Shown here in pieces: positions 4,888-44,334 of a stretch of DNA of 64,000 bases; position 1 is the first letter of the stretch; the number at the start of each line of letters is the position of its first letter. The position numbers and the translations under genes are program-made. The DNA is from Flaccisagitta enflata (lineage: Eukaryota): NCBI GenBank assembly GCA_965153355.1, contig OZ231126.1, forward strand, positions 6,758,001 through 6,822,000, read 5' to 3'. A model generated the notes under the pieces. It searched no databases, was not told the DNA's origin, and saw only the letters and a list, made by a program, of their open reading frames with translations.

Positions 4888-6895
4888 CTTCTTTTCCGTT
4901 CCCACGCTCACTCATAGTCTTGAGGGCAGCATCGATACAATCGATAATGCACTCGATCAAAAAGATTGATCTCCACTCACCCAAAGACGCTTTCACCCCA
5001 TTCTCCATAATTCCTCGTCAATGGTCAATCGTAATCCTAGCTCGCGACTTTCCACGTCATATCAACGGACTTGATCGCTACCAATCACATCACCTCCGCC
5101 AGAATTGCTTTATAAATGTTCATTTCCTCTAGACTCAAAGAACTTTCTGTCGAAAAAGATTCTTATCAATTTCACTTCCATCCAATAAAAATTTTCAAGA
5201 CCTATTATACACTTATAGAGACAAAGCTTTGTGGAAATATGGCCAGGATGGAAAGTGGCAAAATAGAATTCAAATGTAAAGAGGAAAGTACTTCTAATGA
5301 AACGATGTCATCATCGGCCGCAATTTCCCAACTTTTGAATGGCGAAAAAAAGAAATTCGAATGTCAACTATGTTCTGCGTTGTTCACTCAAAAGTGTTCT
5401 TTAAAGAGACACATGTTGGTTCACTCGGTTGAACGTGAAAAGCCTATGAAATGTCAATTATGTTTAGCGTCGTTCAATCGAAACGTCGATTTAAAGACAC
5501 ACATGTTGGTTCATTCGGTTGAATGTGAAAAGCCTATGAAATGTCAAATATGTTTAGCCTCGTTCAATCAGAAAGCCCATTTGCAGTCGCATATGATGGT
5601 CCACACGGGTGAAAAGCCATATAAATGTGAAGAGTGTCCATCAGCTTTTTCTACAGATCGAAAATTGAAATTGCACATGCGAACTCATTCTGGAGAAAAG
5701 CCTTATCAATGCCACATTTGTCCTGCAGCATTTGCCGATGCGAATTATTTGCCAATTCATTTACGAATTCATGCGGGAGAAAAGCCCTTCAAATTTGATC
5801 TCTGTCCCTATGCTTGTGCGGACAAAAGAAAGCTAAAAAGTCACACCGATGTCCATTCTCGCGACAAATCTTTCCGCTGCGAACACTGTCAATCAACTTT
5901 CACTCGTCCAGGATCATTAAAGACACATTTGCGGATCCATAATTCGGAGAAATCATTTAAATGCGAATTATGCCCTTCTGCGTTCTACCAAAATGGCAAT
6001 CTTAAATCACACGTGAAAAGAGTTCACATGAAAGTCAAACCATTTCAGTGTAAATTGTGCCCTTACGCTTCGTCAGATAAAAATGCCTTGACGCAACATA
6101 ACCGGACACACACCGGCGAAAAGCCCTTCAAATGCGACAAATGCCCCTATAAGTGCTCCCAAAAGGGGATGTTAACGATTCATTTGCGAACCCACACTGG
6201 CGAACGGCCTTACAAGTGCGATACTTGTCCATTTGCATCGAAAAGCAACGCTGCACTAAGAAGTCATAAGAAAACTCATACGGAAGACAAACCTTTTATC
6301 TGTGACGATTGCCCATCAAAGTTTTCTCGGAAATCTCATTTGAAAGAACACGTAACGAGGAGACACACTGAAGAGAAACCTTTTCAGTGTGACATCTGTT
6401 CGTATCAAGCTAAATCAAGCTATGATGTTGCGAAGCACATGCGAGTCCATACCAAAAACACGGAAAAGCCGTTTCCATGCCAACGATGCCCATCCAAATT
6501 TGCCTCTAAACTTTACTTGCAAGCGCATTTGAAAATTCACGATGGACATAAAAAATTCCAGTGTTCAGAGTGTTCATCTGCGTTTCGCGAAAAAAGAAAT
6601 TATGAGGTTCACCTAAGAATTCATACTGGTGAAAGGCCATTTCAATGTGATCTATGCATATTCGCTGCCAAGACTAAAACCGACTTGAAATCACACCTGA
6701 GAACGCATAGCGGAGAAAAACCATTTCAATGCGATGAATGTCCATATCGATGCTCTCAACAAGGTGCTTTAAAACAGCACAAGAGAATCCATAGCAACAC
6801 TTGTTCGTGAAGAACTCAATGAGGATCATACTGGCTATCTCTTTTCAATATATACACCATGAAGAGAGGCTATTCTAATGTTCATGATGGTCAGT

Positions 6896-8025: not shown

Positions 8026-9140
8026 TTTTGCAATTTTTCAGAAATTTTCTTCTTTTTTTTCTAAATCAAAACGAGTGTGTTGAATTTCTCATTTGGTTTA
8101 TAAGAGAACTGATAAGATTGATTGATTTAATGCGCAGCCTTCCGCCAAAAGGTTCAAGATGCGTCAAGGTTGCATGATATGATAATTATATTATAAGAAA
8201 ATTGTTTGATTGACCGAAATGGTTCTTCCTTGTAGCCCCCTTGTGACTCAGCCCTCTGGCTTAAATTTGGCTATGAATTAGCCTGAGGACAGCCCAATAT
8301 ACCCAACGCGTGGTCACGAGAGTAATTCCTAAATTTGCCACATCTTTCATTTGTATTGTACACTCATGTATGCTTTAGCGATATTTTTTTCCAACATAAA
8401 TTGGCCTAAACAGATCGCAACAATCTTCTTCTACATCCATTACAGTAATCACTGATCCTTCCTTTTCTCTCTCCTCACTTTCTCATTATGTGTCGGTCTG
8501 TCTGTCTGTCTGTCTGTCTTTCTTGCTGTTACTTTGTCTTTCTGACTGTCTGTCTGACTATCGGGTAATGAAAAGGCGACTACTGTAACGTGAGATATGA
8601 AACCAGTGTCAAGCAATGAAAATCTGAAATCGTGCAAAATGACACGCAAAATATCAAAGAATGATTCAATTGTTAAGTCGAAAGGCATAATAAGTTCCAA
8701 ACGCTCGAGATAAGCGATTGATGAGTTACTATAAAGGTTTTTGGTGGCTGACAGGCATATCAATCACTTTTTATCGAAATTGGTCGGTTTGTCTGTCAAC
8801 TCCACATTTTGTCTTTTTTTATCTTTCGTATCTGAGTGTTTTATGACGCGTTTTTTTATTCTAAAAGTGTCGTCTTTATATCTAACTACTAGATAGTATC
8901 TATAAGTTGATTGGATGTCAACTGAATGGAAAAAGAAAATATTCTAATGAGACAGATAAAGAAAAATATACAATTAGATGTGATTGTTATTTCTAATGAT
9001 CAAATAAAACAAATTCACGGAAGAGAACGAAAAGCGGAAATCAATATCGTAACTTACATAAAGAAAAAAGAGACATTTACCCGATAATAAGCGACAGATC
9101 CAAATGACGAAAAACAGAAATGAACAAGAACACGCTGTTG

Positions 9141-9755
9141 CACTGCTGTCTCACATAAGGTTTGAGACAAGAATGATATTACTATGCGGTTTTTTGCATT
9201 TTTGCAGAGTTTATGAGTATACAAACCGAGAACTATCAAGAAGAAAATCTTTCCCAAGGCGCTTTTTGAAAATCTGAAAAATTAAAGATTTTTAGCTTCA
9301 TTTTGCATAGAATATTTTTCAGGTTGGTTTGACTTATTTTTTAACAGCATAATGTTAATCCTGATAAAATTCCCTTTCATTCGATAGGTCGCACTATATA
9401 GTTTTCAGAAAAAATAAAATTTTCATTTTCAAAGCCACCGTTACAAAATTACAATGGTGGCATAAAATTTGTATATTTCATTACTTATCAAAACCATACA
9501 GTGCGACCTATCAAGTGAAAGGGAATTTTATCAGGATTAACATCGTGCTGTCAAAAAATAGGTCAAACCAACCTAAAAAATTATCTATGCAACATAATGC
9601 TGAAAATCTTGAAGTTTTCATATTTTTCAAAAGGCGCCTTGGGGAAGATTTTCTACTTGATGGTTCTTGGTTTATATACTCATGAACTATGCAAAAATGC
9701 AAAAAAACGCATAGTAATATCATTCTTGTCCCAAACCTTATTTGAGACACCAGTG
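9141..9755. mobile_element. Foldback MITE, CACTG...CAGTG termini, ~250-bp arms, 4-bp TSD GTTG (Chapaev/CMC-like)
   Basis: cactgctgtctcacataaggtttgagacaagaatgatattactatgcg is inverted at ~9707-9755; GTTG directly on both flanks. Confidence 0.8.
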
Positions 9756-10209
9756 GTTGATAATACGGGTGGACAACAAAAGGCAGCCAAAATGGCTTTA
9801 TTCGTCTGGTCCTATTTGATTGAGTTCTTTTTTTTTGTTGTTGTTATTGTATTTCTTTCGACATCTATACCGTATGTTTAAGCCTTATTGTATTTAGCAA
9901 ATCAAGAAACGCTATGATCGACTGTGGTATAATGAAATGAATCACTAAGGTAATGAGAATTATTATGCTCATCACAGAAAATCGATAATCATGAACAATT
10001 TCCATTATTCATTTATTCAAGCAAGTAGTGTGAAATGAAACATACCTACCTACCTTGATGACTACGATTTGATTCTTATCTTTATGTTTACAAATGAACA
10101 GGAACAAAAAGAATTAAGATCCTACATATATAAGCTAATGGATATTGAGTTCACCCAAGCAACGATTGTTGCAAAATCTCCCCAATAACGAGATCCACGT
10201 ATCCGAGTA

Positions 10210-10266
<57 letters not shown>

Positions 10267-11696
10267 GGCGGTCTCTCCATTCTTTGCGCCCTTTATTGGA
10301 TAACGACGTCAGCGCATCCGTAGAATTGCTCTTGATCACCGCATCCGGTGCAGCATTTGCCGTCTTTGCCGCAGTCCCAAGTGTTGCCTGCGTTGTATTT
10401 CCATTGCATGACACGGTGAGAGCATTTCAGGCCAGCCGGAAGTCTGACCTTTGTACGCCATTCCCCTTTACGCCAACTGTCCACCTGAGGGCAAAGGAAA
10501 AAAGAAAAAAAGAAGAAAAGAAAAGGGAGAGAGAGAAAATAAAAGAAACAAGGGAGAGAAAGAAGGAAAGGGATTAAGGGGCAAAAGGGAAGGAAGAGAG
10601 TGTCCACCTAAGGGCAAAAGCAAAAAGACGTGAAATGGTTCAAAAGAACAAGAGAGAGAAGGAAAGAAAAAAAGAAAAGGGAAGGAAGAAAGTGTCTACC
10701 TTGGAGCAAAAGAAAGAAAAACGAAAAACAAGTGACACGGGGTCACAATATCGTTGCGGACGGGTGGACAGGGGCAGCCAACCCCCATCCACACCCCAAG
10801 TCCCCCACTCTCATACACAAAATGCATCTAAAACACGCGTTTTTGCGCTTTTCGACTCGTGTTCACGGACGGACCGATGGACCGACGGACGGACAGACAA
10901 AGCCTCTTATAGTGTTGCGTGTCTGTCTTTTAAAAAGAGAGAAAGGGGTTATGAGAGGAAAGAGGGTGAAGAAGCAGGAACCCAACTGAGGAATGAAGAA
11001 AGACCAAGGAAAGAAGGGGAAAGAAAAGGAAGAAGGAAGGCGGAGGGAAGGAAGGAAGGAAGGAAGGAAGGAAGGAAGGAAGGAAGGAAGGAAGGAAGGA
11101 AGGAAGGAAGGAAGCAAGGACATGAGAGGTAGAAAAGATAAGAAAGAAGAAAGATTAAGAGATAGAAAAGAAATAAGGCAAGGAAGGAGAAGATAAGGGG
11201 ATAAGAAGCGGGAAGGAAAGGAAGAAATAAACTGAGGACAAAACACATACATACAGACGTAGATTAAAGGTGAGAGATCTTTAGACAAAGAAATCAAGGA
11301 AAAAAAAACAGGAAAAAAAAAAGCGAAAAGCGGGAAGGAAAGGACAAAACACATACATACAGACGTAGATTAAAGGTGAGAAATCTTTAAACAAAGAAAT
11401 CAAGGAAAGAAAAACAGGAAAAAAAAACAGGAAAAAAAAACAGGAAAAAAAAAAGCGAAAAGGTTTTGACTTTTGGTTTGATTTTGACCCCAAAAAACCT
11501 TGAATTTTGTTCCGCTTCAATCAGCCAATTGCAGAGGAATGAAGCAATCGTGAGTCGCCCGTTTTTTGGGATCATTCGTGGGACAAATGCTCCATTGCAT
11601 CCAACCTTTGTGGTTCGTAGTCAAAATCGATTTGACCTGGTTGTGGAAGGAAAAAAAAGGAAAGGTTGTGAGGAGGGGGGGGGGGAGAGTCGGGAG

Positions 11697-14807: not shown

Positions 14808-17052
14808 TAACTGGTGCGCCTTGCATCTGCCAAAACGACAATGACGACGAAGACGACGGCGAAAAATGACAACACCAGCAACCACAATGGCAATGACCAC
14901 AAAAAAACAACACCAACGACAACAAGAACAACAGGAAGAACAAAAAAACAAAAAAAACAAAAACAAAAACAAAAACAAAAACAAAAACAAAAACAAAAAC
15001 AAAAACAAAAACAAAAACAAAAACAAAAACAAAAACTACAACGGCTAGGAATTTGGCGTCATTTCAGCAGAACAAGGTCTGGATGGTCTGTCACTTTTTA
15101 CGTCTAAGATACGATACCATTGTAGCATTTTATAAGTATTGACCTTCATGGCTTTGGCTCACCTGAATGGTTTGTTCTAACTTGGCACAGTTTGTTCCAT
15201 CAGTTTCTTGTCCTGACTGGAAGCTACGTCCCATTAGTATATTTTGTCTCACCTCAATGATTTGTCCTGCTTTGTATGTCTTGGCCACGATTCCTTTTCC
15301 CCATTTGCCACTTGCTTAATGTGCTCATGGCTCAGGTCTGTCCAATTAGTTTCTTGTCTTAACTTAATGATTTTTTCCTTTGGTATGTCTTGTCTTACCT
15401 CCATGGTTTGTCCTGCTTTGTATATTTTGAGCACAATTCCTTTGCCCTATTTGCTCCCAGCTTCATGTGCTCTAGGCACTGGTTTGTCCCAAGCATCTCC
15501 ACAAACACCGCAATTTATCCCCAACTTCTTTTGATGCATGAATCCGCCGCAAAAACATTCGTCGTAAATTAGGAGAATTTCAAACTAAATTGAAGCATTT
15601 CTTATGTACGCAGATCGCTAAGATCAGGGAAGATAATTGGTAAGCTGCACTGTTTACGACACTTGGCCTTATATAGACTTCTCTCATATTACTGACTTTA
15701 GTGGCTTACTTGACCTTAGATCTGCTGGAGAATATAAGAATAAGAAAAAAGGTTTATTTCTCTATGGATAGATGTTGCACTGCTTGACCATACTGACTCT
15801 CTTGGCTTTGTTAGATTACTCGCTCACTCGCTTTCTCGCTTATTCGCTCACTCGCTCGCTCGCCCTCTTTACATGAGCATTAATGTGCTTACCTCCATCC
15901 CGAGGTCCGTCCATAAGGCTCTGACAAATACCCGTGGCCCTCGGCGCCGCCAAAAAGGCCCAAAACCGCGCAAAAAATCGCGCCTGTAATGAAACTCAAA
16001 CGCATTTTTAAACCCTTTTTTTGTTTGCCTTTTTTCTTTTCTTTTTTCGTGTTATTTCTGGAAAAGCAAATCTATCTTGAACGTAATAGCTTTTCTTTCT
16101 CAATCAATAAAGGAAACGACAGGCTAAAAGTGTTTGCACCTTTTTTTCAAACATTGATACTTTATCCGATCCTCAATTAAAGCAGTATATGTTTTGATAT
16201 CCCGCTTTACACTCCGCTTTGTCGGTCCGTCTGTAGGTTGGTCTGTCCATCCATCCATCCGTCACACTTTTACTTTTTTGACATTTTCGAACTTTTTGGC
16301 CTCACTGCCCCTGCCCATCTCCACACGACTAGGACATCTGTGTATCCAGCCTTGTTGAATAGCCTCGCTATCAATTTCAGGATGTACCAATAAAGATAAA
16401 AAAATAAAAAATTTAAAAACTCAGCTCCAAAACTATCGATCGCACACAATTCTGCTTGGCGTCATCTGAAAGAGGAGAATTAGCTCTTTCTAAGCTGTTG
16501 ATTTTATTCATACGCTCATTTGGCCCGAAAAAAGCATCAACTTCCTCAAACTCTCAATGAGAAAAAAGGAAAATGCAATACCGCCATAAGTCTCAAAAAG
16601 CCGAAGGTATTCTTCGACTTTTTTTCCAAATTAGAACAGGTTGTCTGTCTGACTGGTATTTTTCTTCTCAGCGATTCCACCAAACCATTGCTCAGTATTG
16701 ATGTATCTTTTTGACTGCTCAAAAACTGGGCTGTTCCCACTGCATCGTGTGAACCAATTGTGGAAACTATAGCGTATCTGAAAAAGAATACACTGACATT
16801 CGTGGTACATTATCACTGATAATTTATCAGATGAAAAATACTCGACTCGCCCTATTCAAACTTTTGTAAGATATCAGCGTTTTCACAACGAAAACGGAGA
16901 GTGGCATGTGGGTTGGCAGTGGAAGGGGCAGGGGCAAGGATAGGAAAGGCTAGTAGGACATCAGGGCGGGCAGGGGCGGTTATCGTCTTAACGACAACCA
17001 GACAAACGAGCCTACCAACCGACAGCCGACTTTGGATAAAAAGAAGGAGAGA

Positions 17053-17244
<192 letters not shown>

Positions 17245-17336
17245 GAGTGGAAACTAAGCTTCCAGAAGGCGGAGTTTTGATTGGGTGCAATACTAGTTGC
17301 GCCATCTGTGCATTTCACACGCGAACTAAAAACCAA

Positions 17337-17682
17337 CGGGCAACAAGTAAAGGAACAAGACCGGATACACTATAGCCCCATTGCATAAGGGAGAGAAGGG
17401 GGAATATTGGGGAGGGCAACAAGTAAAGGAATAAGACCGGATTTACAGCAACCCCATTGCATAAAGGAGGGGGGGAGAAATGGTTGGGAGGGTTATTTGG
17501 ACAATTGGGCAACAAGTAAAGGAACAAGACTGGATACACGACAACCCCATTGCATAAGGGAGAGAAGGGGGAATGTTGGGGAGGAAAACAAGTAAAGGAA
17601 CAAGACCGGATGCACAGCAACCCCATTGCATAAAGGAGGGGAGGGGAAATGATGGGGAGGGCTATTTAGACAATTGGGCAAG
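17337..17682. repeat. Tandem degenerate ~75-100-bp units related to the HINE 3' end
   Basis: Four copies of gggcaacaagtaaaggaacaagaccggatacac...ccccattgcataa. Confidence 0.7.
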
Positions 17683-17994: not shown

Positions 17995-18428
17995 CATGGT
18001 TTAAATTCCATACTTCGATAAAGCCGTATTTTTACTTCTTCGATACTGTTGACTTAAATACACAACATCGCTTCTTTAAGCTAGTATCTTCAGCAATTCT
18101 ACAACTGTAGCAATTTCTCCGCGGCTACATTTTAAAAAGTTATCATCAAGCTAGATAAATTCCATCACCTGCAATAATCCTAAATTTGTAACAAATGTAT
18201 ATCAATTCATTTGATTGCAAAAGGTTTTTTTTGGATTGAAAATGAAACGATAAATACACATAGAAAATGATAAAAAAGTTCATGCTCAGGTCCTTGGTTA
18301 TCTGTTTTTGATTATGCGCTCTAATAAAGAAAATGTCAAAATAGCAACATATTTCAAGAAATGCAGTAGAATAATTGTGAATAAAATTTGGCGACATCGG
18401 TTAAGACAGTAAACATTCAAGATAAAGG

Positions 18429-19218
18429 TGAGATCGTTTAGCGTCTAGTTTCTTAGCAAGCTCCTGAAGCGTTATCGCAAGAACTGACTCCACTGCGTAG
18501 CTGCGCTAAAGATTTGGATCGCACACCCGCTTAGGACGAATTGTTGAGATGAGCGGTCAAGTTGTCCGCGAAATCAGTCTATTCGTGGAATCCTAACGGA
18601 CAGAGAAAAAGGAAAAAGGTTAAGACAAGCTCTGTACATCAATGAAGGATACTTCTGTATGGCGCCAAAAATGATAAAAGGTCAAGGACTTACACGGATG
18701 TTGTCGAACGGTTTCCAATCTAGGCGCAGGGCAGGGAAGTCGGGGAAAAAGCATCAAAAATCGAGTCTTTAACTGAGATCGTGTAATCGAATGTCAGAAA
18801 GAAAGTCAGGGAAGCTACTTTTACTTAACCTGGAAATAGCAAAAGAATGAGTCAAAACATCACGAGATTTGAAATTATTTGGCAGCAATGAAACACTAAT
18901 AAATAGATTCGTCACGTCGTGGGAATTCGATAGAGGGGTCGAAGTCTTTCCTCCTCTAAGCGGTTGAGAAGATATAGTTCATCAATTCTCAACCGGAAGT
19001 CAGCGCTTCCGGCGCGCACGCGCGTTCCTCCCCTTCCTCCGTCGATCGAAGATCTCTCTCCTTCTTCCTCGATTTCCTCCACTCTGCAGTCGAGCAGACG
19101 CCATCTTGGATTTTCGATGGCGAGAGAGCCCCTCCTATTCTCCGGATCCGCGGAGTCGAATGCGTCCGATCGAGCGCTTCTTGACCTGGAGATGGTGGGG
19201 AATGTGGAGATTCTCACA
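18429..19218 (-). repeat. 3' LTR (790 bp)
   Basis: Direct repeat of 30139-30926; by eye 2 substitutions and 2 single-base homopolymer indels. Confidence 0.97.
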
Positions 19219-19230
19219 GTCCCCCCATTT
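19219..19230 (-). promoter_or_regulatory. Polypurine tract (AAATGGGGGGAC) abutting the 3' LTR
   Basis: Reverse complement of gtccccccattt immediately inside the LTR boundary. Confidence 0.85.
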
Positions 19231-20060: not shown

Positions 20061-21740
20061 CTACTTCCGGCCTTTACCCCTGCCGCCCTTTCCTCCACGA
20101 TAGGATGGCGCGTCGTCTTTCCTACTGTGGCGTGGAGGGGGGTTTCTGCCGGAAGGTGGCGCATGGTCGCTCGACGGCGCGGAATGGCGTTGAGTGCCGG
20201 AAGTCGACGGCATTTGTCCGTCGGACTGAGCGAACTCAGCGCGGATGCGGTCGGCTTCCTTCTTCGCGTCGGACAGCAGCTGGGCCATCTGAGCGACCTT
20301 TGCGTCGTGCTCACCGACAACCTTCATCCTAAAGTTGTATTGTTCGATGAGCTTCCTCGCCGATCTGGCTCTATCCACGGCGTGATCGGCAGCGTAGATC
20401 GCGCGATCCATCGGAGATGAGTTGGGATAGAAGGCCGCCGGAAGAATGTCTACAACCTTTTGAATATCCTTTGACCGAGGATGATTTGGCAACTTGATGG
20501 CGACGGCCAACATCGCCTCGGTCAGAAGGTCTTCCGGCGATCGGGGAGGGCGATGTGAAGGAGAAGAAGCGGATGCCGTCGACGTTGACGACCTGTTGGA
20601 CGTCGACGCATCTCTAGGCTTCCTTTTTGGACGACGATTCTTCTTCTTTTTGTTGGCGTTTTGCTCCTCTCGTCGCTGTTGGTCGTCGTTGACGGGAGGA
20701 GGAGGAGGTGGAGGCAGATTTGCGGCTGCCCCTGCGAGCACACCCCCTTGATTGTTCGTTGTCGTCGTCGTTTGAGTTGGGACACGGATTGGTGAAATGT
20801 CACGTGACCGCTGGCGTTGAGGAGGAGGAGGCCGGGGAGCGGGATCATGTGGTAATCTCGCGGGACCATCCATCACCGTCGATGATAACGATGCGGATGC
20901 ATCCGGCGGTCCACCCCTGCTCACCCGACGTCTCTTCTCTCTCACTTCGATTTGTAGATTGTTGGCGCCAGCGTTGGCTCGTCGATCGTCTCTCGGATGA
21001 TGTTGTGGAGGATCCTGCGTCGCGGGCGTCTGACGCTGATCGCTGCCACTTCCGGTCGAACGAATAGCCTCTGCGATCCGACGAGCGGCTCCTTCACGTC
21101 GTCTTTTCCTCTGATTTGAGGCTTTTCCACGGGAAATATCTCTCAAAGTCCCATTTCCCATGTCCGCCGTTGCTCCAATAGATCTGATGTTGATGATCTT
21201 GCACAATTGGAGCGTCTCGCGTGTTTCAACCGTCGCAATCTCTCCGTCCTCTTCAACTAATTCGTCTCTGACTCTTTGCGTCGGAACATATGCTCTTCGC
21301 TCGGCTTGTGGATGAAGAGCATCTCTCTCCGCGCGTAAGCGACGCTGCGTGTCGTGGTATATCGCAGTGTGCTTCCGCTCGATGAGGGCGTCGACTTGGG
21401 CGTTGTAGATCTTCACCAATTCGACCGCTTGTTCCTGCGAGATGGAGGACAGATCACTGATGTACGGCGGGATCACCAGCGTCGCGTCAGGTGATGCTTG
21501 AAACGGCGCCGGCGCGGTCGAGTCTGCGGCCGGCGTTACTTGTAACGTCGGCGACTCCACGACCGCCTGCGACGTCTGCGGCGGCGGCGGCAGAATTGGG
21601 GGAGCAAGGGAAGGAGCAGTAAGTACCCCTTGGGGGCCTGTAGGTCGGGTCGAGCAACCTCCCCGGGAAGTCCCTCTCCCCTTCCGTCATGTTCGTTAGT
21701 GTCCATCTTATCGCCCTCACTGTCATCCTGAGTCTCGTAG

Positions 21741-22391: not shown

Positions 22392-22935
22392 GATGGATCT
22401 TTCTGCAACAGTTATGCGACGATACCGACAAGGGGAAGCTTTTTAGCGTAAGATAGTGTAAACGCCTGTTTTTGGAGAAAATTCAGATTTCGAGATGTAA
22501 TAAGACGGAAAGAGGAAGACATATCCATTAACATTGAGGAAGATTAAATGGTATACGCAGACAAAGAAGCAAGACTCTTCGATCAGCGCCTCAAATGACC
22601 TCCATACTCAACAGTCAATGATATGGATAAAACGGAAAAGAAAATGACGAACAAATGCCTTTATATGGTCAATACAAGATTGAAATGGCATGGCAAATTT
22701 AGATTGTCAGTCAATCATGCAGACACTCTCAACTGACTGGGGCACCATGTACCTCTCTCTCTCCTGTCTTTACACACAAAGACATATCAGACAGACCGAC
22801 TGAGAAAAAGTAAACAAGACCAAAAAAATAATCATGAGAAAAAAAATCCTCATTTTCTGCATAGTCTTTACAAATAGAAACACTTGTGCTTCTCTCCGGT
22901 CTACTTTCTCTCTCTCTCTTCACACTTATCCGTTT

Positions 22936-25900
22936 TTAATCTGAATCCAACTCCAATCGGACGATCTTCGGCCGATCTTGAGAACAATCTTGCCGTCGGG
23001 GCGTCGGATCTGTGCTTTCGGACATGACCACCAGATCCTTCCACTTCGACGACGCGTCCCAAAGACCACTGATGCCGATGAAGCGTCTCGTCAACGATGA
23101 TGACCAATGCATCTTTTTTGATGTTAACTTCCGACTTTGTCCATTTGCTCCTTGCGTGCAGCAACTGAAGGTATTCTGCGCGCCATACCTTCCAGAAGGC
23201 GTCAACGCGGGCCTGTGCGTTTCTCCATCGGCATCTCGTTCCCACGGCGTCGTTTCCGGTCTCTGGAGGAAGAATCGCTGCCAGCGAGTGTGAGAACGTC
23301 GACGGATGCAAGATGTTGACCGGCCTCAGCGCTGATGTATCGCTAGGATCGTCGCTCAAAGGCGTGAGAGGTCGACGGTTGAGAATTCCCTCCACCTCAA
23401 TCACCGCCGTTTGGAAGACGTCGTAATGGAGCACGTGACCGGAAGTAATGGACGCCAAATGTTTTTTGAAAAGGGATACGACCCTTTCCCATACGCCGCC
23501 GTAATGAGGAGTCCCCGGAGGAATGAAGTCCCATTGGAGTCCATGCTGCTGCAGAGCCACTGTCGACGACGCGTTCCACGACTGCATCTCCTCCTTCATG
23601 ACGCGATTCGCCCCAACTAGGTTGGTACCGCAGTCTGATATGAAGCGACGCACCGTTTGCCGTCTCGCCGCGAATCTAATGATGGCGTTGATCATTGCCT
23701 CTGTGTCCATTTTGAACAACACCTCCACATGCACCGCCCTTGAAACCATGCAGGTAAACACCACTGCCCAGACTTTATGATCCGCTCTTCCATTCAGTTT
23801 CACCAGGAAGTGACCCATGCAGTCGAGTCCCACCTCCTCGAAGGGGGCCGTTGGAATAAGCCGACGTTGAGGAAGAGGCGCCATCTGCTGCTTCATAGGA
23901 TCTTTAAAGTTCCTTTGGCACGTAACACAATGGTGGATGACTGTCTTCACCGCCTGGAGACCACGAAGAATCCACACAAAGCGTCGCAGTTGGCACAAGA
24001 CGTGTTTTGGGCCTGCATGAAGATCCTGATGATGAACATGGCGAATCAGAGAAGCGACGTTTGGATCCTTCGAAGGGAGAATCATCGGGTATTTTTCGTC
24101 ATGGCCGATATCTGCATTCACGAGTCTGCTCCCGACACGCATCGTTCCTTTCTCGTCGACAACCGGATTGTGATGGCGTAGGGTTTTACAGATCACCTTG
24201 GCGCCGGCGTCGTTGATCAGCGGCGTCGTTTTTCCCACCGCCTTCAACTTGGTTATCTCTCCATGGAAATGTTTGAACTGGATCGCGTTGATCAAGCGGC
24301 GTTGTGCGTCGTACAATTCAGCCATAGATACAGAGTATGGATTTGGCAGCGTCGTTGTCGCTGTTCTAGTTTTTGCCTTCACCTTCTGTCTCCACCGCTG
24401 CGTGCACTTCACAACCACGGCGATCAAACGCAATTTCGCCACCCACTCCTGGCGACGGGCGGCGACTGCATAGGCGAACATTTCCTTTTCCTTCTCTCCT
24501 TCCTTCTCCTCCACCGTTTCTGTCGCGACGGCGTTGATCGACGCTTCCGGCGCCGTCGCGATGTTCATCACCGGCCACTCAGATTTGGGAAGGTAGAGAA
24601 ACTTCGGACCGAAATGGAAAATGTCCCATTTTTCCTTGTCGCCGGCGTCAATACCCCGCGAACAATAGTCCGCGGGGTTACTCTCCGAATCAACCCACCT
24701 CCATTGAGAATCACTTGAGCCGCTGTGGATTTTTGAAAGTCGGTTTGCGAAGAAGCTCGGACGTTTAGACTTATGGTCGAAGATCATCTTCAGCACCGCC
24801 TCTGAATCTGACCAGAGCGTCACCATGTCCTCAGTCACCTTTGGAATGGTCCTCTTGATGAACAATTTGAGTTTCACCGCTTTCTCTGCCGCTGTCATTT
24901 CTAACCTCGGCACTGAATTATGATGCGACGCTTTTGACGCATCAAGAGGGACGACGTGAGCCTTGGCGCACAAAATGGTGACGCGGATTGTTCCATCTTC
25001 ATCTTCCACCAACCAATAGCCCACTACTCCAAAACCAGGGATGGCGGCGTCGCAGAAGATGTGAACCTCTCGTCGAACGGCCTTCACAATGCCCCATTCA
25101 ATGTGGCGCGGAATTTCGATCTGGATCAGCAATGGAGTCGCAGAGTACCATTTGGCGAAGCGTTTGATTAACGCCTCCTCCATCGTCGAATCCCATCCCT
25201 TCTCGGAAGCTCTCGTCAACTGAAGACACCTCCTCCCTTCAAGGGCGCGGGGGGCAGTGAAGCCCAATGGATCATAGTTGTCGGCTTGCATGGAGACCAA
25301 TTCGCGAGGAGTTGTTGCCACCCTCTTGCATGCTTCTGGATCGCATCTGAAGATGAAGCAGTCCGTCGACGGCAACCATTGGACTCCCAAGACCTTCGTC
25401 GGCTCCTCGAGTTTGGCGCTCAAGTCGACTGCGACATTCGGATCCTCGTCCATCACCTCCACCGCGTTCGATTTCCACTTCGTTAACGTAAATCCGCCGC
25501 TTTTCATGGCTGCGATGAGATCCTGCTTCAGCTGCAGTGCCTCGTCGACTGAATCCGCACCACCAGAGCCATCATCGACGTAGAAGGCATGCCTCAACAT
25601 TTCGTAGACGTTTTCCGGGAAGTCGGGCTTGATCTTCTCTGCGTGATGGCGTAAAACATAGCTGGTAACGAGACTCGATGACACAGATCCAAAAATGTGC
25701 GCCAAGAAGAGCATCACGACCGCCTCTCTCATGCTTTTGTCGGTGAACCACATATATCTGAACGTGTCCGCATCCTCAGGATGGACGCGGACGTTATGAA
25801 AGAACGCCTTTATATCAGTCATCAGACCGATTTTATAAAGGCGAAATTTCATAAGAACTTCAGTCAAGACGTTCATGATATTCGGACCTCCAATCAGTAG

Positions 25901-26950
25901 TTCATTGAGGCAAATGCCGCCAGTCTCCGCGCGTCCATCGTGACAAATCCGCGTTTTATTTCTTTCCTCCACCACATGGATGGGTAAGTACCAGCGGGGC
26001 GATGAGATGCTTGCGTCGTCGTTCGCCGGATCAATCTCAATCGCCACGCCCGTATCTACAAATTTGTCCATTTCTTTGAAGACGCGATCGCGGAGGTCAT
26101 GATTATTTGAGAGTTTGTATCGGAGACTTTTGGTCCTCTTAATCGTCATCGCGCGTGCGTTGACAGACTTGATAATCTCGATGATCTTCTCCTTGTCATA
26201 GCGCCATGGAAGTCCCACGACGTATTTTTGGAGTTTTTCGTCGAAGTATATCGTCTCCATCACCCGCTTCACCGCGCGGCGATTCTCTTCAGACTGGCCC
26301 ATTTCTTCCTCCGACACAATGGCGAAGTCGTGATAGAACATGCGGTCGAGAGATTTGCTCAATGCGACGTTATCCACGTGGATCGCGTTAATAACAGCGG
26401 TATCATCTGATCTCCGTCCACTCTTCCCTGCTACAGTCCATCCAAAACCGCATCTGAAGGCTGTCAAAGATCCTGAGGGACCTCTTCTTGCCTCCACAGG
26501 CATCGTCGCGTCGTAATGGGCGGCGCCGATGATCATTTGGACAGGACCATTTGCTTTTGGAAATGGAAGATCGCGAAGATGAGATTGATTTGTGAAGTCG
26601 CGTTGGCATGGAGCAATATCCGCTTCACCCGTCAATAACTCTCCCGTTAGTGCGTTGCTGATGTGGACGTTGTATTCCTCGTCAATCGATGAAAGGATGA
26701 AGGACGCCAAAACTTTCTCCTCCACCACTTCACAATTGACCGTATGCACGCGCATCAGCATCTTTTCCGTTGGTAAGTCTAGTTTTTTAACGATTTGAAG
26801 CGATAAAACGTCACGATCCGCACCGCTGTCAATCATCCCCAACACTACGGTGGAACGGCCCGTCGATGCGTTGGTGATTTTTACAGGAACAATCGGACGC
26901 GTGACATCATCCTCCGCGACCACCGTCCTCATCGCGGAGGTGGCAGCGAG
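22936..26950 (-). CDS. pol: Bel/Pao Pol: aspartic protease, reverse transcriptase, RNase H, integrase
   Basis: MIDSGAD (PR); DIKAFF, FRYMW, YVDD (RT); IFCDA, VPRLEM, WSDS, NPADYCSRG (Pao RNase H); H-x4-H...CVTC, LDCMG, SDCGTN, GGVWER (IN). The conserved tail VRKAQIRRPDGKIVLKDRPKIVRLELDSD is restored by adding one A at ~23017 and one at ~22978. Confidence 0.95.
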
Positions 26951-29900
26951 TCACGCCTCCATCACCCTTCCTTCATCAGATGCAGAATCATCCGTCGACG
27001 AGCTGCTTGGGGGTGCTGGAGGAACGGTTTTGGCGGCGGCGGCGGCCGCGGCTAATGCGGCGGCATTCGGCGTCTTGAACGTGATTCCTTCTCCATTCCC
27101 TTTTTGCTTCCATTGGCGGTCGTGCAGCAAAGTCGCGTGTCTCTTGTTGCAAGATGAGCATGTTGGCTTGTCTTTGCAGTCGCGCGCCGAATGGTTTGGG
27201 CAGAAACAATGAAAACATAGACGTTTCTCCGCCAACTTCTTCACTCGATCCTCTGCTGATGGGATGGCTTCCAAAACGTTGCATGAATGAGAATTGTGGC
27301 GACCTCCACAAATGTTGCAGATATCGTTGGGTTGCTGCTTCGGAGGTGAGTTGACGAGCTGTTCCTTAAACGTCGCCGGACCAACTGCCGTCGCTGCAAC
27401 CTTCGTCGGTTTCGGCGCCATGCGTGTTGGTTCTTTGAGGTTGTTGTACGACACCCAATGCTTCACCTCCTCGATGAGTTCTTGGAAGCCGTAAGCCGTA
27501 CCATGGCGAGCTTGTTCACGCGCGCTTGCTTTCCAATAGTCCGTCGAGATGTGTGGCACCCTCGCGTTGATGATGCGGCGAATGTGGACGTCACGATCAC
27601 ACTCTCCAGGTACATTCAGCAATTCTGCGACGTTTTCTAGTTTGTACAACGTGCCAATCAACGATTGATGGGCTCTCATATCGTTTTCTGGGACCTTTCC
27701 TTTCCTGCAGATGCTGTCGACGGCCGATTGGAATGGGTTGGCGCTCGTGTTGAACATCTCGTCCAGGCGTCTCCACAAGGTGCTGTAGACACGGCGCATA
27801 TTGTGCGCCTTGATGATGAGTTGTTGACCGTCGATAATTTCCTTCGCTGGATTCGCGAAGACGTTGGCCAATTCAGTCACTTTGTCGATTTCGTCTAGCT
27901 CGATGTTGGAGGCGGCATTTTCGAATTTAGACTTGGCGATGATGTAGTCGATCGGCTCGAGGTATCCATACGCTTCTCTTGGGCGTGCTGCGCGCATTTC
28001 TCTCAATCCCACGTCCTTTGCTCTGACGCGGGCGTCGTAGGCGATCGGGTTGTCGATGAAAGAAGCGGCGTTCATCCTCTCGGCGAAGGATTGCGAATGC
28101 GCGAGGCCATTTCGCGCGGAGTCACTTCCGGTTTGACGTTTTTGATACATAGGAGGCGACGGCGTTGGGGGTGGCGTCTTCCTTGACTTCCGTCTGTCGA
28201 CGCGTTCGAACCCCTCGTCATCGAAGACGTCGTCGACCAGGGGGCGCTGACTCCCGCGTGCATTCCGGGACGCTTGTGGAGCTGGAAGATCACCCGCGAT
28301 CTGGCGGACGATAACCGGCGAGCTTGGTGATGGCGGCGTCGATTTGCGCGGTGGAACACGTGTCTGCAAAACGACGCTGTCCTCCAGGTTGAGGTCGCTG
28401 ATCAATTGTTGGACCCTCGCCATTGCGTCCGCGTGATCCATCGCGTTCTTTTCCTGCTCCGCTGCATCTTGTCGCGTGCGCAGTTGCTCGTGGAGAGGAT
28501 GTTCACGTGCAGCTGGGGGTGGCGTTTTGGAAGGTGGTTGTCTCTGCTGGCTTTTCTTTTGTGCCTCTCTCCTCTTCCTCTCCTCCTCCTCTTTCCTTTT
28601 CTTCTCTTCTTCCTTTTTCTTTTCTTCGCGTCTTTTCTTCTCCTCCATCCTCTTTCTTTCTTCCGCGTCTCTTTTTGCCACCGCCTTCCTTCTCTCCTCC
28701 TCTGCTTTCCTCTCTGCTTCCTTCCTTTTCTTTTCTTCTCTCTCTTCTTTCTCTCTTTTCTCCTGTGCGATCTTGTTTTTCAAGTTCGTCCTCCTTTTCT
28801 CCTCCTGCTCCTTTCTCGTCTCCTCTGCCTTCTTTCTCACTTCTTCAGCGTGGATACGTTGTCTTTTCTCCTCCTCCTCTTTCTCTTTCTTCCTCCTCTC
28901 CTCCTCCTCCCTTCTTTTCCTCTCGTCGATTCCGGCCGTGACCGCGTCTGTCCGGGCAGTAACGGCTGCGTCCAATGCGATGTTTGCCGTCAACTGCCGG
29001 GCGTTCTCTTCGCGTTGTTGAGATACCGACTGCGAGCTGAGACGGAATCGCGTATTTGCGCGTGCTTCTCTCGCCACCGAGCGTCGGACTTGGTTGACGT
29101 CGTTGACAAGACGTTGGACGACGTGCACCATCGCGTCGCTTTGAGCGTTTTTGTCGCCGTCGGCAATCGATTGCTGTAACATGTTGAGAAGATCTTGTGT
29201 GGGAGGGGCGCCGCCAACGGCGCCTGGAGGAAGGTCGGCGTCGTCGTTCGGCCATGACGTTTCCATCGCGTCGTCGGGGTCATCGTCTCCATCGTCTCTA
29301 GTCGACAAGAAGCGCGACCTCGCCGGCGTCACCGGCGTCGGAGGTTCAAAGTTTATGCGTATCTGCTCGGCGTCTTCTATCGCGCCCGGCGTATGGGGCG
29401 GCGCGTTGTGGCGTTGATCCGCTGCATTGAGATTCGCTGCTTCCGTACCGACGGGCAAATCGTCCTCTCCCGCGTCTCCATCGTCGCCGGTCGTGTTCGG
29501 CGTCGATTTGCGTCGTCGCGAAAGGGACTGGACGAAATGCGTCGACGACCCCATCGTCATCTCGAGAGCGCGTTTTGCTCCAGTCTCCGGTGACTCGTCG
29601 TGGATGTCATGGTAGGTCGGCAGAAATAGATGCGACGCGAAAGTGTTTTTGTCGTGGAAGCATGTTTGGTCCCACAGTTTTCGTACCTCCGTCAATGAGC
29701 TTTCGGCCGTCGATAACAGTGACGCCGCTTTGTCGGGGTTATTGGTCGACTCTGCGTGTGAGTAAGTCTTTGTCTGATTCACAAGTCGCCACGCCGCTAA
29801 CCACACCTCCTTTCGAAGGCAGTCCATGTCTTGGTAAAAGTCCAATATATCGTCGTCGTCGAGGGTATCGGCTTGCTTCAACGCCGACATGTAGGCGTTG

Positions 29901-30094
29901 CGCGTGTTGCGTAGCGCCTTTCGTAACCCGCGAAGCGTCGTAGCCACGGGGTCCATTGCGCCCGCGTAGACGGATGAGTCGGAAACGACGGACACGCAGT
30001 CGGCTGGTCGAAAGGTTTTTCTGCGTTGATTTGGCAGCGAAGGTGGCGGCATTGACATCGCGTCGGCGTTGGCGTTGTTGTTGGCGGTCGACAT
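26951..30094 (-). CDS. gag: Bel/Pao Gag, 1047 aa, long charged coiled coil and three C-terminal zinc knuckles
   Basis: CNICGGRHNSHSC, CFHCFCPNHSARDC, CSSCNKRHATLLH (typical Bel/Pao triple knuckle); uninterrupted ORF starting 45 nt inside the 5' LTR boundary. Confidence 0.93.
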   Translation of the reverse strand: MSTANNNANADAMSMPPPSLPNQRRKTFRPADCVSVVSDSSVYAGAMDPVATTLRGLRKALRNTRNAYMSALKQADTLDDDDILDFYQDMDCLRKEVWLAAWRLVNQTKTYSHAESTNNPDKAASLLSTAESSLTEVRKLWDQTCFHDKNTFASHLFLPTYHDIHDESPETGAKRALEMTMGSSTHFVQSLSRRRKSTPNTTGDDGDAGEDDLPVGTEAANLNAADQRHNAPPHTPGAIEDAEQIRINFEPPTPVTPARSRFLSTRDDGDDDPDDAMETSWPNDDADLPPGAVGGAPPTQDLLNMLQQSIADGDKNAQSDAMVHVVQRLVNDVNQVRRSVAREARANTRFRLSSQSVSQQREENARQLTANIALDAAVTARTDAVTAGIDERKRREEEERRKKEKEEEEKRQRIHAEEVRKKAEETRKEQEEKRRTNLKNKIAQEKREKEEREEKKRKEAERKAEEERRKAVAKRDAEERKRMEEKKRREEKKKEEEKKRKEEEERKRREAQKKSQQRQPPSKTPPPAAREHPLHEQLRTRQDAAEQEKNAMDHADAMARVQQLISDLNLEDSVVLQTRVPPRKSTPPSPSSPVIVRQIAGDLPAPQASRNARGSQRPLVDDVFDDEGFERVDRRKSRKTPPPTPSPPMYQKRQTGSDSARNGLAHSQSFAERMNAASFIDNPIAYDARVRAKDVGLREMRAARPREAYGYLEPIDYIIAKSKFENAASNIELDEIDKVTELANVFANPAKEIIDGQQLIIKAHNMRRVYSTLWRRLDEMFNTSANPFQSAVDSICRKGKVPENDMRAHQSLIGTLYKLENVAELLNVPGECDRDVHIRRIINARVPHISTDYWKASAREQARHGTAYGFQELIEEVKHWVSYNNLKEPTRMAPKPTKVAATAVGPATFKEQLVNSPPKQQPNDICNICGGRHNSHSCNVLEAIPSAEDRVKKLAEKRLCFHCFCPNHSARDCKDKPTCSSCNKRHATLLHDRQWKQKGNGEGITFKTPNAAALAAAAAAAKTVPPAPPSSSSTDDSASDEGRVMEA

Positions 30095-30126
30095 CGTTGA
30101 CGTTGCGTGGATCGTTGATGGTTTTT

Positions 30127-30138
30127 GATTCCACGAAT
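30127..30138 (-). promoter_or_regulatory. Primer-binding-site position: ATTCGTGGAATC, complementary to LTR-internal 30302-30291 rather than to an obvious tRNA 3' end
   Basis: gattccacgaat (30127-30138) is the exact reverse complement of attcgtggaatc (30291-30302; also 18581-18592). Confidence 0.7.
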
Positions 30139-30926
30139 TGAGATCGTTTAGCGTCTAGTTTCTTAGCAAGCTCCTGAAGCGTTATCGCAAGAACTGACTC
30201 CACTGCGTAGCTGCGCTAAAGATTTGGATCGCACACCCGCTTAGGACGAATTGTTGAGATGAGCGGTCAAGTTGTCCGCGAAATCAGTCTATTCGTGGAA
30301 TCCTAACGGACAGAGAAAAAGGAAAAAGGTTAAGACAAGCTCTGTACATCAATGAAGGATACTTCTGTATGGCGCCAAAATGATAAAAGGTCAAGGACTT
30401 ACACGGATGTTGTCGAACGGTTTCCAATCTAGGCGCAGGGCAGGGAAGTCGGGGAAAAAGCATCAAAAATCGAGTCTTTAACTGAGATCGTGTAATCGAT
30501 TGTCAGAAAGAAAGTCAGGGAAGCTACTTTTACTTAACCTGGAAATAGCAAAGAATGAGTCAAAACATCACGAGATTTGAAATTATTTGGCAGCAATGAA
30601 ACACTAATAAATAGATTCGTCACGTCGTGGGAATTCGATAGAGGGGTCGAAGTCTTTCCTCCTCTAAGCGGTTGAGAAGATATAGTTCATCAATTCTCAA
30701 CCGGAAGTCAGCGCTTCCGGCGCGCGCGCGCGTTCCTCCCCTTCCTCCGTCGATCGAAGATCTCTCTCCTTCTTCCTCGATTTCCTCCACTCTGCAGTCG
30801 AGCAGACGCCATCTTGGATTTTCGATGGCGAGAGAGCCCCTCCTATTCTCCGGATCCGCGGAGTCGAATGCGTCCGATCGAGCGCTTCTTGACCTGGAGA
30901 TGGTGGGGAATGTGGAGATTCTCACA
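30139..30926 (-). repeat. 5' LTR (788 bp) containing a putative 100-nt intron (30402-30303)
   Basis: Direct repeat of 18429-19218; minus strand GTAAGT ... CTTAAC, pyrimidine tract, TTAG. Confidence 0.95.
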
Positions 30927-31394
30927 AAAGGTCATGAGAAAATAGAAGACATTGAGAACGAGATCTATCTTTTATAACATGGAAATGTAAAAAAATGGAT
31001 TTGAAAGCCAGTTATATAAATAGATAGCAATCTTTTCCAATTATTTTTCTTTAAACTAAGCTACGTGTTATTCATTTTTCAACATTTTAATCTTTTTTTT
31101 TTTTTTTGTCATTTTTCTTCTTCAATACTTAAAAACAAATCACTGAAATTACGTCCAAGTTTCCTTTAAAGTCACCTACTAAAAGTAGGTTACTATCCAA
31201 CTCTCTAGGCCACTATGTACTTGGTCCCTTGATCGTTCCATCTGATCGTTTATCCGTCCGTCCGTCGGTTATACTCATGTTTTTGGGTCAACCATACGCG
31301 GATATAGTTACATATTACCATGGCTCATAAAACTAAAGATTTCAATCACGAATTGTTCATCATTCGTTCATCATTCGTTCATTTAGTGAATTGT

Positions 31395-35647: not shown

Positions 35648-43890
<8,243 letters not shown>

Positions 43891-44011
43891 GTGGAAAAGA
43901 AGGAAACAGCTGAGCTCGTAGGTGAGAAAATAATGGCTCTGAGATGACAGGGAAATTGACTCGTGAGACGCCATGTGGAACTGAGTGTGGAGAAATGGGA
44001 AAGAGAGAGAC

Positions 44012-44170
<159 letters not shown>

Positions 44171-44173
44171 CAG

Positions 44174-44334
<161 letters not shown>

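Follow-up and report, generated by a model that had tools for sequence, protein, structure and literature searches.

To our knowledge, priming of reverse transcription by an element's own RNA (self-priming) has been proven only for Tf1-type elements of the Ty3/gypsy superfamily. Bel/Pao elements constitute the third superfamily of LTR retrotransposons and are found only in animals. In Tf1, the RNA's initial 11 bases pair with the primer site, and cleavage by RNase H falls between bases 11 and 12 (PMC7175516). For Tf2, alternative transcription starts determine whether the RNA includes the self-primer (PMC5341516). Under an in-silico rule, a self-primer is recognised when 10 bp or more within the 5' LTR are complementary to a region that starts 0-5 bp after the LTR. 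The paper that states it predicts self-priming in plants for gypsy elements of the Tcn1 clade and copia elements of the TAR lineage (PMC6317226).

In the ICTV profile, members of the Belpaoviridae are described as primed by tRNA-Arg or tRNA-Gly at a site of 18 nt, and their gag and pol as continuous or overlapping (PMC8742986). The preliminary description of the present locus also states that Bel/Pao elements are generally described as primed by tRNAs. That description knew of no report of self-priming among these elements, and we likewise found none in the main texts of open-access papers. The main Bel/Pao survey mentions primer sites 0 times.

The element considered here is located in a 64-kb window, by which we mean the whole stretch of DNA that was analysed (64,000 nucleotides from Flaccisagitta enflata). 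As in Tf1 and Tf2 of S. pombe, Tj1 of S. japonicus and the Tf1/sushi group, the bases that follow its 5' LTR are complementary to the interior of the LTR. The Tf1/sushi elements belong to Ty3/gypsy, whereas the window element is a Bel/Pao element that lacks a chromodomain and resides in an animal host. It also differs from the Tf1 group in that an intron-like unit abuts the candidate primer, and in that self-priming, with the 12-mer as the 5' end of the RNA, is here a prediction from sequence. Membership in the Tf1/sushi group by descent was considered and is ruled out because Pfam places pol in Bel/Pao; the likeness may be one of working only.

The plant Tcn1-clade gypsy and TAR copia elements provide the same kind of sequence evidence and their self-priming is likewise only predicted, but they are members of the other two LTR superfamilies (PMC6317226). 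Canonical Bel/Pao elements (genus Semotivirus) share with the window element the pol families, the TG..CA ends, the 5-bp duplication and the polypurine tract. They are described as carrying the 18-nt tRNA site and a continuous or overlapping gag and pol (PMC8742986), whereas the corresponding site of the window element matches its own LTR and its gag and pol are split by an in-frame TGA. GalEa-like copia elements similarly have a near-palindrome at the position of the primer site. A complementary inverted repeat in U5 is reported never to have been found by the authors who described them (PMC5445492), whereas the window element has such a complement.

Structure and coding capacity of the element

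As delimited by alignment of its two LTRs, the retrotransposon is complete and lies on the minus strand (Table 1). Between the two LTRs there are 2 substitutions and 2 one-base indels, and the structural hallmarks of Bel/Pao elements are present, including TG..CA LTR ends, a 5-bp target duplication and a polypurine tract. Pfam identifies RVT_1, Peptidase_A17 (5.1e-28), Integrase_H2C2, rve and DUF5641 (1.2e-18) in pol, and all close database relatives of pol carry PF05380. Because pol carries Bel/Pao families and its relatives carry PF05380, we assign the element to Bel/Pao (Belpaoviridae), which is the identity that the preliminary description had given it. The element is apparently a recent insertion and apparently intact.

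A single frame beginning with the ATG at 30094 encompasses gag, an in-frame TGA and pol, and a third ORF is located downstream. The gag product has no Pfam match. It is unusually long, and its Lys/Glu/Arg-rich low-complexity insert covers approximately residues 430-560 (window 28400-28900). A UGA-CUA context promotes readthrough of the stop codon, and the gag/TGA/pol layout suggests that pol is made by programmed stop-codon readthrough. At the gag-pol junction, the TGA is followed by CTC in the window element (26951-26953) and by CTA in the related metagenome loci L001 (4965-4967) and L002 (1988-1990), and thus by CTN in 3 of 3 elements of the clade. Close relatives of pol in the protein database are pol-only proteins of about 1300 aa. 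A third ORF follows pol in L001 as well (9031-10560); in both elements this ORF is proline-/arginine-rich and has no Pfam family, and comparison of the two products revealed no likeness (E 1.4).

Elsewhere in the window, an ORF on the plus strand (5116-6810) encodes 564 aa made up of about 13 zinc fingers of the C2H2 type, as would be expected in an animal host. Long arrays flank the neighbourhood of the element, with an 8-nt period and in one case a 42-nt period (16927-17352, 36649-37100, 43883-44300 and 38959-40203).

Table 1. Coordinates of the features of the window element and of the intron-like unit of the sister locus L001.
Feature	Position	Strand	Description	Basis
5' LTR	30139..30926	-	788 nt, TGTGAG...ATCTCA	LTR alignment; repeat families
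3' LTR	18429..19218	-	790 nt	LTR alignment; repeat families
Target-site duplication CCTTT	30927..30931 (upstream copy), 18424..18428 (downstream copy)	-		Flanks in LTR alignment
Polypurine tract GGGGGGAC	19219..19226	-	Flush upstream of 3' LTR	LTR alignment
Candidate primer-binding site ATTCGTGGAATC	30127..30138	-	First 12 bases past the 5' LTR, which ends ...GATCTCA at 30139	
Candidate self-primer GATTCCACGAAT	30291..30302	-	Within 5' LTR; 3' LTR copy at 18581..18592	
GGACA	30273..30277	-	+28..+32 if A30304 is +1; in the window element, not in L001	
Intron-like unit	30303..30402	-	100 nt; GTAAGT 30402..30397, pyrimidine tract 30329..30305, TAG ending at 30303	
Intron-like unit, 3' LTR copy	18593..18693	-		
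Intron-like unit in L001	1651-1751		GTGAGT 101 nt upstream of the AG before the arm	
Upstream signals	30529..30588	-	AAATAATT 30588..30581, TCATTC 30558..30553, AGTAAA 30534..30529	
gag	26951..30094	-	1047 aa, two CCHC zinc knuckles, long Lys/Glu-rich insert; ends in in-frame TGA 26953..26951	ORFs
pol	22901..26950	-	1348 aa, same frame as gag	ORFs; Pfam
Third ORF	20061..21686	-	541 aa, no Pfam family	ORFs

Pairing of the post-LTR bases with the LTR

The preliminary description had reported that the 12 bases past the 5' LTR are perfectly complementary to a segment inside that LTR, and this is confirmed on the minus strand, where 30138..30127 pair with 30302..30291 at 12 of 12 positions. Its other observations on the geometry also hold. 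The LTR is not directly followed by a TGG, the first of which begins 5 nt in, and the LTR arm said to lie about 150 nt upstream of the LTR end is separated from the other arm by 152 nt. The register is right for self-priming in that the pairing starts at the first base after the LTR. The 12 bp at offset 0 are also in keeping with the in-silico rule for self-primers (PMC6317226).

When the LTR was shuffled and the arm was anchored on the first post-LTR base, a pairing of 12 bp arose in 0 of 3000 trials and one of at least 9 bp in 5 of 3000. With offsets of 0-5 permitted, 12 bp were obtained in 0 of 1000 shuffles. The chance of about 5e-5 that had been estimated earlier agrees with the absence of a 12-bp match among the 3000 anchored shuffles. 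Moreover, the 64-kb window contains no match to the complement, exact or with one mismatch, besides the two LTR copies.

In a search for inverted repeats, the pairing reaches 15 nt (93%), by way of one A-A mismatch followed by 2 bp that reach into the LTR end. The 12-bp stem closes the minimum-free-energy fold of 30302..30110 as well as that of 30360..30060. The post-LTR 12-mer is itself near-palindromic (ATTC-GTG-GAAT).

A sister element with a different pair of arms

A protein search with pol returned 37 relatives, including one that is 97% identical and a series of metagenome proteins at 36-55% identity. The nearest named relatives are insect and shrimp proteins (24-31% identity). A scan of metagenome contigs with a 20-sequence pol alignment yielded 51 loci, and scans of viral contigs with the pol protein and with this alignment found no relative. 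L001 is the only locus of the closer group that reaches upstream of gag. It has 43% pol identity to the window element and the same gag-TGA-pol-ORF3 layout. Its LTR is represented by a single collapsed copy, the end of which was placed from the CA and the pairing and not from a second LTR.

In L001, the sequence ...TTTTACA is followed by ATTTAATCC (1889-1897), which is complementary to GGATTAAAT (1751-1759) located 129 nt upstream; the loop of the window element measures 152 nt. A blind enumeration of the 2011 nt before gag identified this stem as the sole CA-anchored stem of at least 9 bp with a loop of 60-400 nt, and 25 of 300 shuffles of the region produced any such stem. The minimum-free-energy fold of L001 is closed by the 9-bp stem. 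At 9 bp, the pairing is shorter than the 10 bp of the in-silico rule (PMC6317226) and shorter than the 11 of Tf1.

The 5' arm of both elements begins at the single [CT]AGGATT of the region, downstream of a pyrimidine tract. These arms read GATT-CCACG-AAT in the window element and GATT-A-AAT in L001, and the other arm has changed to match. A blastn comparison of the L001 LTR with the other loci revealed no DNA similarity, and global and local alignments of the window-element LTR with the L001 LTR score at chance level (as high a score was reached by 40 of 300 shuffles). Since the two LTRs have no detectable nucleotide similarity, both arms have changed together. Sister families had been singled out as the place where the complementarity might be lost, and in the one family with a readable 5' region (1/1; L001, 9 bp) it is kept with different letters.

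Other candidate primer sites in L001 were dropped. There is no CA in front of TGGGCTTCATTT at 1537, and TTCGTGG at 2063 is without an upstream complement. The candidate TGGTGCCGG at 2314 is part of gag, as an alignment by eye matches the N-terminus of the L001 gag to that of the window element. The putative LTR of L001 also contains nested perfect inverted pairs of 16 nt (1149-1164/1636-1651) and 12 nt (1231-1242/1537-1548). The 3' arm of the 16-nt pair ends at GTGAGT, and neither pair has a counterpart in the LTR of the window element.

tRNA-type primer sites in distant relatives

There are 11 loci among the 51 in which a TGGTGCC-type site is found shortly after ...ACA(T)n (L006-L011, L014, L017, L020, L025 and L041). 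All are distant Bel/Pao elements (24-33% identity) from similar samples. Nine of them read TGGTGCCG[GT]GACCAGGA, which runs into the gag ATG. The presence of one site after unrelated LTRs in distant loci is the behaviour of a site for a host tRNA. For L008 and L010, in which the LTR starts are defined, no complement longer than 5 nt to the bases anchored after the LTR is present in the LTR.

The site of the window element differs from the TGGTGCC-type site of these 11 loci. When read from the nearest TGG onward, the sites of the window element and L001 have only TGGA in common, and therefore no shared tRNA explains both. No tRNA genes were found in the 64-kb window or in the 17 of the 51 loci that were scanned, and no Rfam family matches 29900-31000.

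The intron-like unit and predicted transcript signals

Both in the window element and in L001, the end of an intron-like unit coincides with the start of the candidate primer. GT[AG]AGT and AGGATT each occur once in the LTR of the window element. Across both strands of the 64-kb window there are 6 units composed of a donor, a tract and an acceptor, of which 2 are those of the element's LTRs and 4 are others. Most copies of the family carry CAG at the end of the unit, as 60885.8 of the depth of 69166 in X1 belongs to the variant at 30305. The pyrimidine tract and the YAG that follows may be read as a 3' splice site, and the unit looks like a real intron. Such a unit is unlikely to have arisen by chance in two families, and therefore at least some RNA probably starts upstream of 30402. 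Removal of the unit would give a pairing of 13 bp instead of 12 in the window element and of 11 bp instead of 9 in L001. The evidence from public data comes from four runs, all in the form of assembled contigs, which do not show where an RNA starts or ends or how it is spliced. A spliced 30302/30403 joint is absent from the 10 joints listed, and the loose ends listed include none at 30302 that resembles a spliced leader; little or no weight attaches to these two absences. Contig X19, which alone among the RNA-library contigs crosses the unit, retains it.

Other signals cluster around the arm. A TCAGG precedes it in most copies of the family and also in L001, and we take this motif to resemble an arthropod initiator with A30304 as +1, in which case GGACA would presumably fit a downstream promoter element. 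The hexamers located just after the arm (AATAGA in the window element, ATTAAA and GATAAA in L001) are presumably polyA-like. This arrangement allows an architecture with a long U3 and a short R that would start at the arm, wherein R and U5 together would measure 166 nt in the window element and 139 nt in L001.

A second group of signals is located about 250 nt upstream of the arm, where we take AAATAATT to be TATA-like, TCATTC to be initiator-like and AGTAAA to be polyA-like. L001 carries TATATA and AATAAA (1170-1225) at a spacing similar to that in the window element. If R were set by these upstream signals, the 12-mer would lie in U5 and a Tf1-like strong-stop cDNA would be left without a target for its jump. 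Between 30302 and 30139 there is no AATAAA or ATTAAA, and between 30291 and 30139 there is no promoter-like signal. An RNA start at the arm and an upstream start followed by splicing may be compatible, as the choice of starts in Tf2 provides a precedent for two starts.

Proposed mechanism and alternative explanations

The most likely explanation is that, in a manner similar to Tf1, the element needs no tRNA to initiate minus-strand DNA synthesis, and we assign this reading a probability of about 0.5. The RNA's own LTR bases 30302..30291 would fold back onto the 12 bases past the LTR, and the RNA would be cut after U30291, presumably by the RNase H of the element. The 3' end of the resulting primer would be extended through the last 152 nt of the LTR, and the short cDNA would then jump to the 3' copy of that LTR region. 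A short primer is needed, and therefore the RNA start is expected at or near 30302. It would probably be located at the 12-mer or 1-2 nt before it, within the TCA(+1)GG at 30306..30302. The stretch 3' of the cut is needed at both RNA ends, and therefore the polyA site, too, would have to be located downstream of 30291.

Self-priming would explain the register of the pairing, the differing sites of the sister elements that each match their own LTR, and the tRNA-type sites shared by the distant loci. A purely structural stem would explain the pairing only. The proposal of self-priming in Bel/Pao, which had been put forward on the basis of the pairing, receives partial support from the register, from the in-silico rule, from the distant loci with tRNA-type sites and, above all, from the geometry of L001. 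It is weakened by the intron-like unit, which argues for some upstream starts.

Perhaps the arms instead form a conserved RNA stem of U5 and the post-LTR region that serves another role, for example in packaging or dimerisation, in the control of gag translation or in presenting the site of initiation. The RNA would then start at about 30556 and carry a 100-nt leader intron, and a different RNA would act as primer. Around the primer sites of retroviruses there are stems of this kind, known as U5-leader and U5-IR. This arrangement is favoured by the intron-like unit, the end of which falls right at the arm in the two families, by the TATA-like, initiator-like and polyA-like signals upstream in both families and by the longer pairing of the spliced forms. 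However, a structural stem needs no exact end at the first post-LTR base in two families. A primer would still be needed at this position, but the sites of the two families share no primer-like sequence and each matches its own LTR. There is also no spliced form among the joints listed, and X19 is unspliced. We regard this explanation as possible but unlikely.

Priming by an ordinary host tRNA or tRNA fragment, for example at TGGAATCAAAAACC five bases past the LTR, would make the LTR complement incidental. If the TGG site represented a tRNA 3' end, the rules for tRNAs would presumably require an acceptor strand UUUUGAU and an A at the conserved C61. An acceptor strand this rich in A and U, together with a missing C61, does not look like that of a cytosolic tRNA. 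In addition, the site is unlike that of the 11 distant loci and shares only TGGA with L001, the Rfam search of 29900-31000 gave no match, and both the 12/12 pairing (p < 1/3000) and its repeat in L001 would be left unexplained. Although a TGG is present within 5 nt of the LTR end and the ICTV profile has the Belpaoviridae as tRNA-primed (PMC8742986), we consider the involvement of a tRNA improbable. A role in 5'-3' cyclisation, wherein pairing with the 5' leader would join the RNA ends and aid the first strand transfer, is very improbable. Sequences for 5'-3' cyclisation are present in yeast Ty1, long-range perfect pairs occur in this lineage (the nested 16-nt and 12-nt pairs of L001), and an RNA start downstream of 30291 would leave the arm at the 3' end only. 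However, the lack of a promoter-like signal between 30291 and 30139 argues against such a start, the element would be left without a primer, and the exact register at the LTR border would be unexplained.

If the self-priming reading is correct, a self-priming Bel/Pao clade would represent repeated evolution of an escape from host tRNAs, and it would explain animal elements that are left without a primer site by tRNA-based searches. An intron-like unit that abuts the primer may also link RNA processing to replication competence. A more comprehensive scenario, which is doubtful, would hold that the whole marine Bel/Pao clade gave up tRNA priming, as a third independent origin that would extend self-priming to all three LTR superfamilies. 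The 5' edge of the primer would be set by the conserved 100-nt intron-like unit, the choice of start or splicing of the LTR would decide between template and messenger, and pol would be made by UGA-CUN readthrough.

Conservation and abundance of the family

Sequences of this family are found in the runs of one organism and in marine metagenomes, with a very high summed depth. Natural material for a test should therefore exist, given this abundance in the host and in marine metagenomes. Among 40 of the 105 variant rows there are no variants inside either 12-mer, and variant positions are found right beside the arms (30120, 30144, 30305 and 30307). RNA-library contig X19 (30089-30538) is 6% divergent and covers both arms, and at least 27 of its 28 differences lie outside them. 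Similarly, metagenome contig X2 (30021-30304) covers both arms and has at least 5 of its 6 differences outside them. By simple arithmetic, 24 invariant arm bases at 6% divergence are not significant (about 0.2). The pattern within the family is one of conservation, without compensatory change, among the variants listed.

The family is extremely abundant in the DNA run of the organism and there are many length variants of the LTR (window 30400-30900), the joints of which cluster at 30489, 30560 and 30875. The contigs from public runs also include a low-depth joint 30145/30299 and a 100-nt skip 30217/30318, and one subfamily diverges upstream of about 30540.
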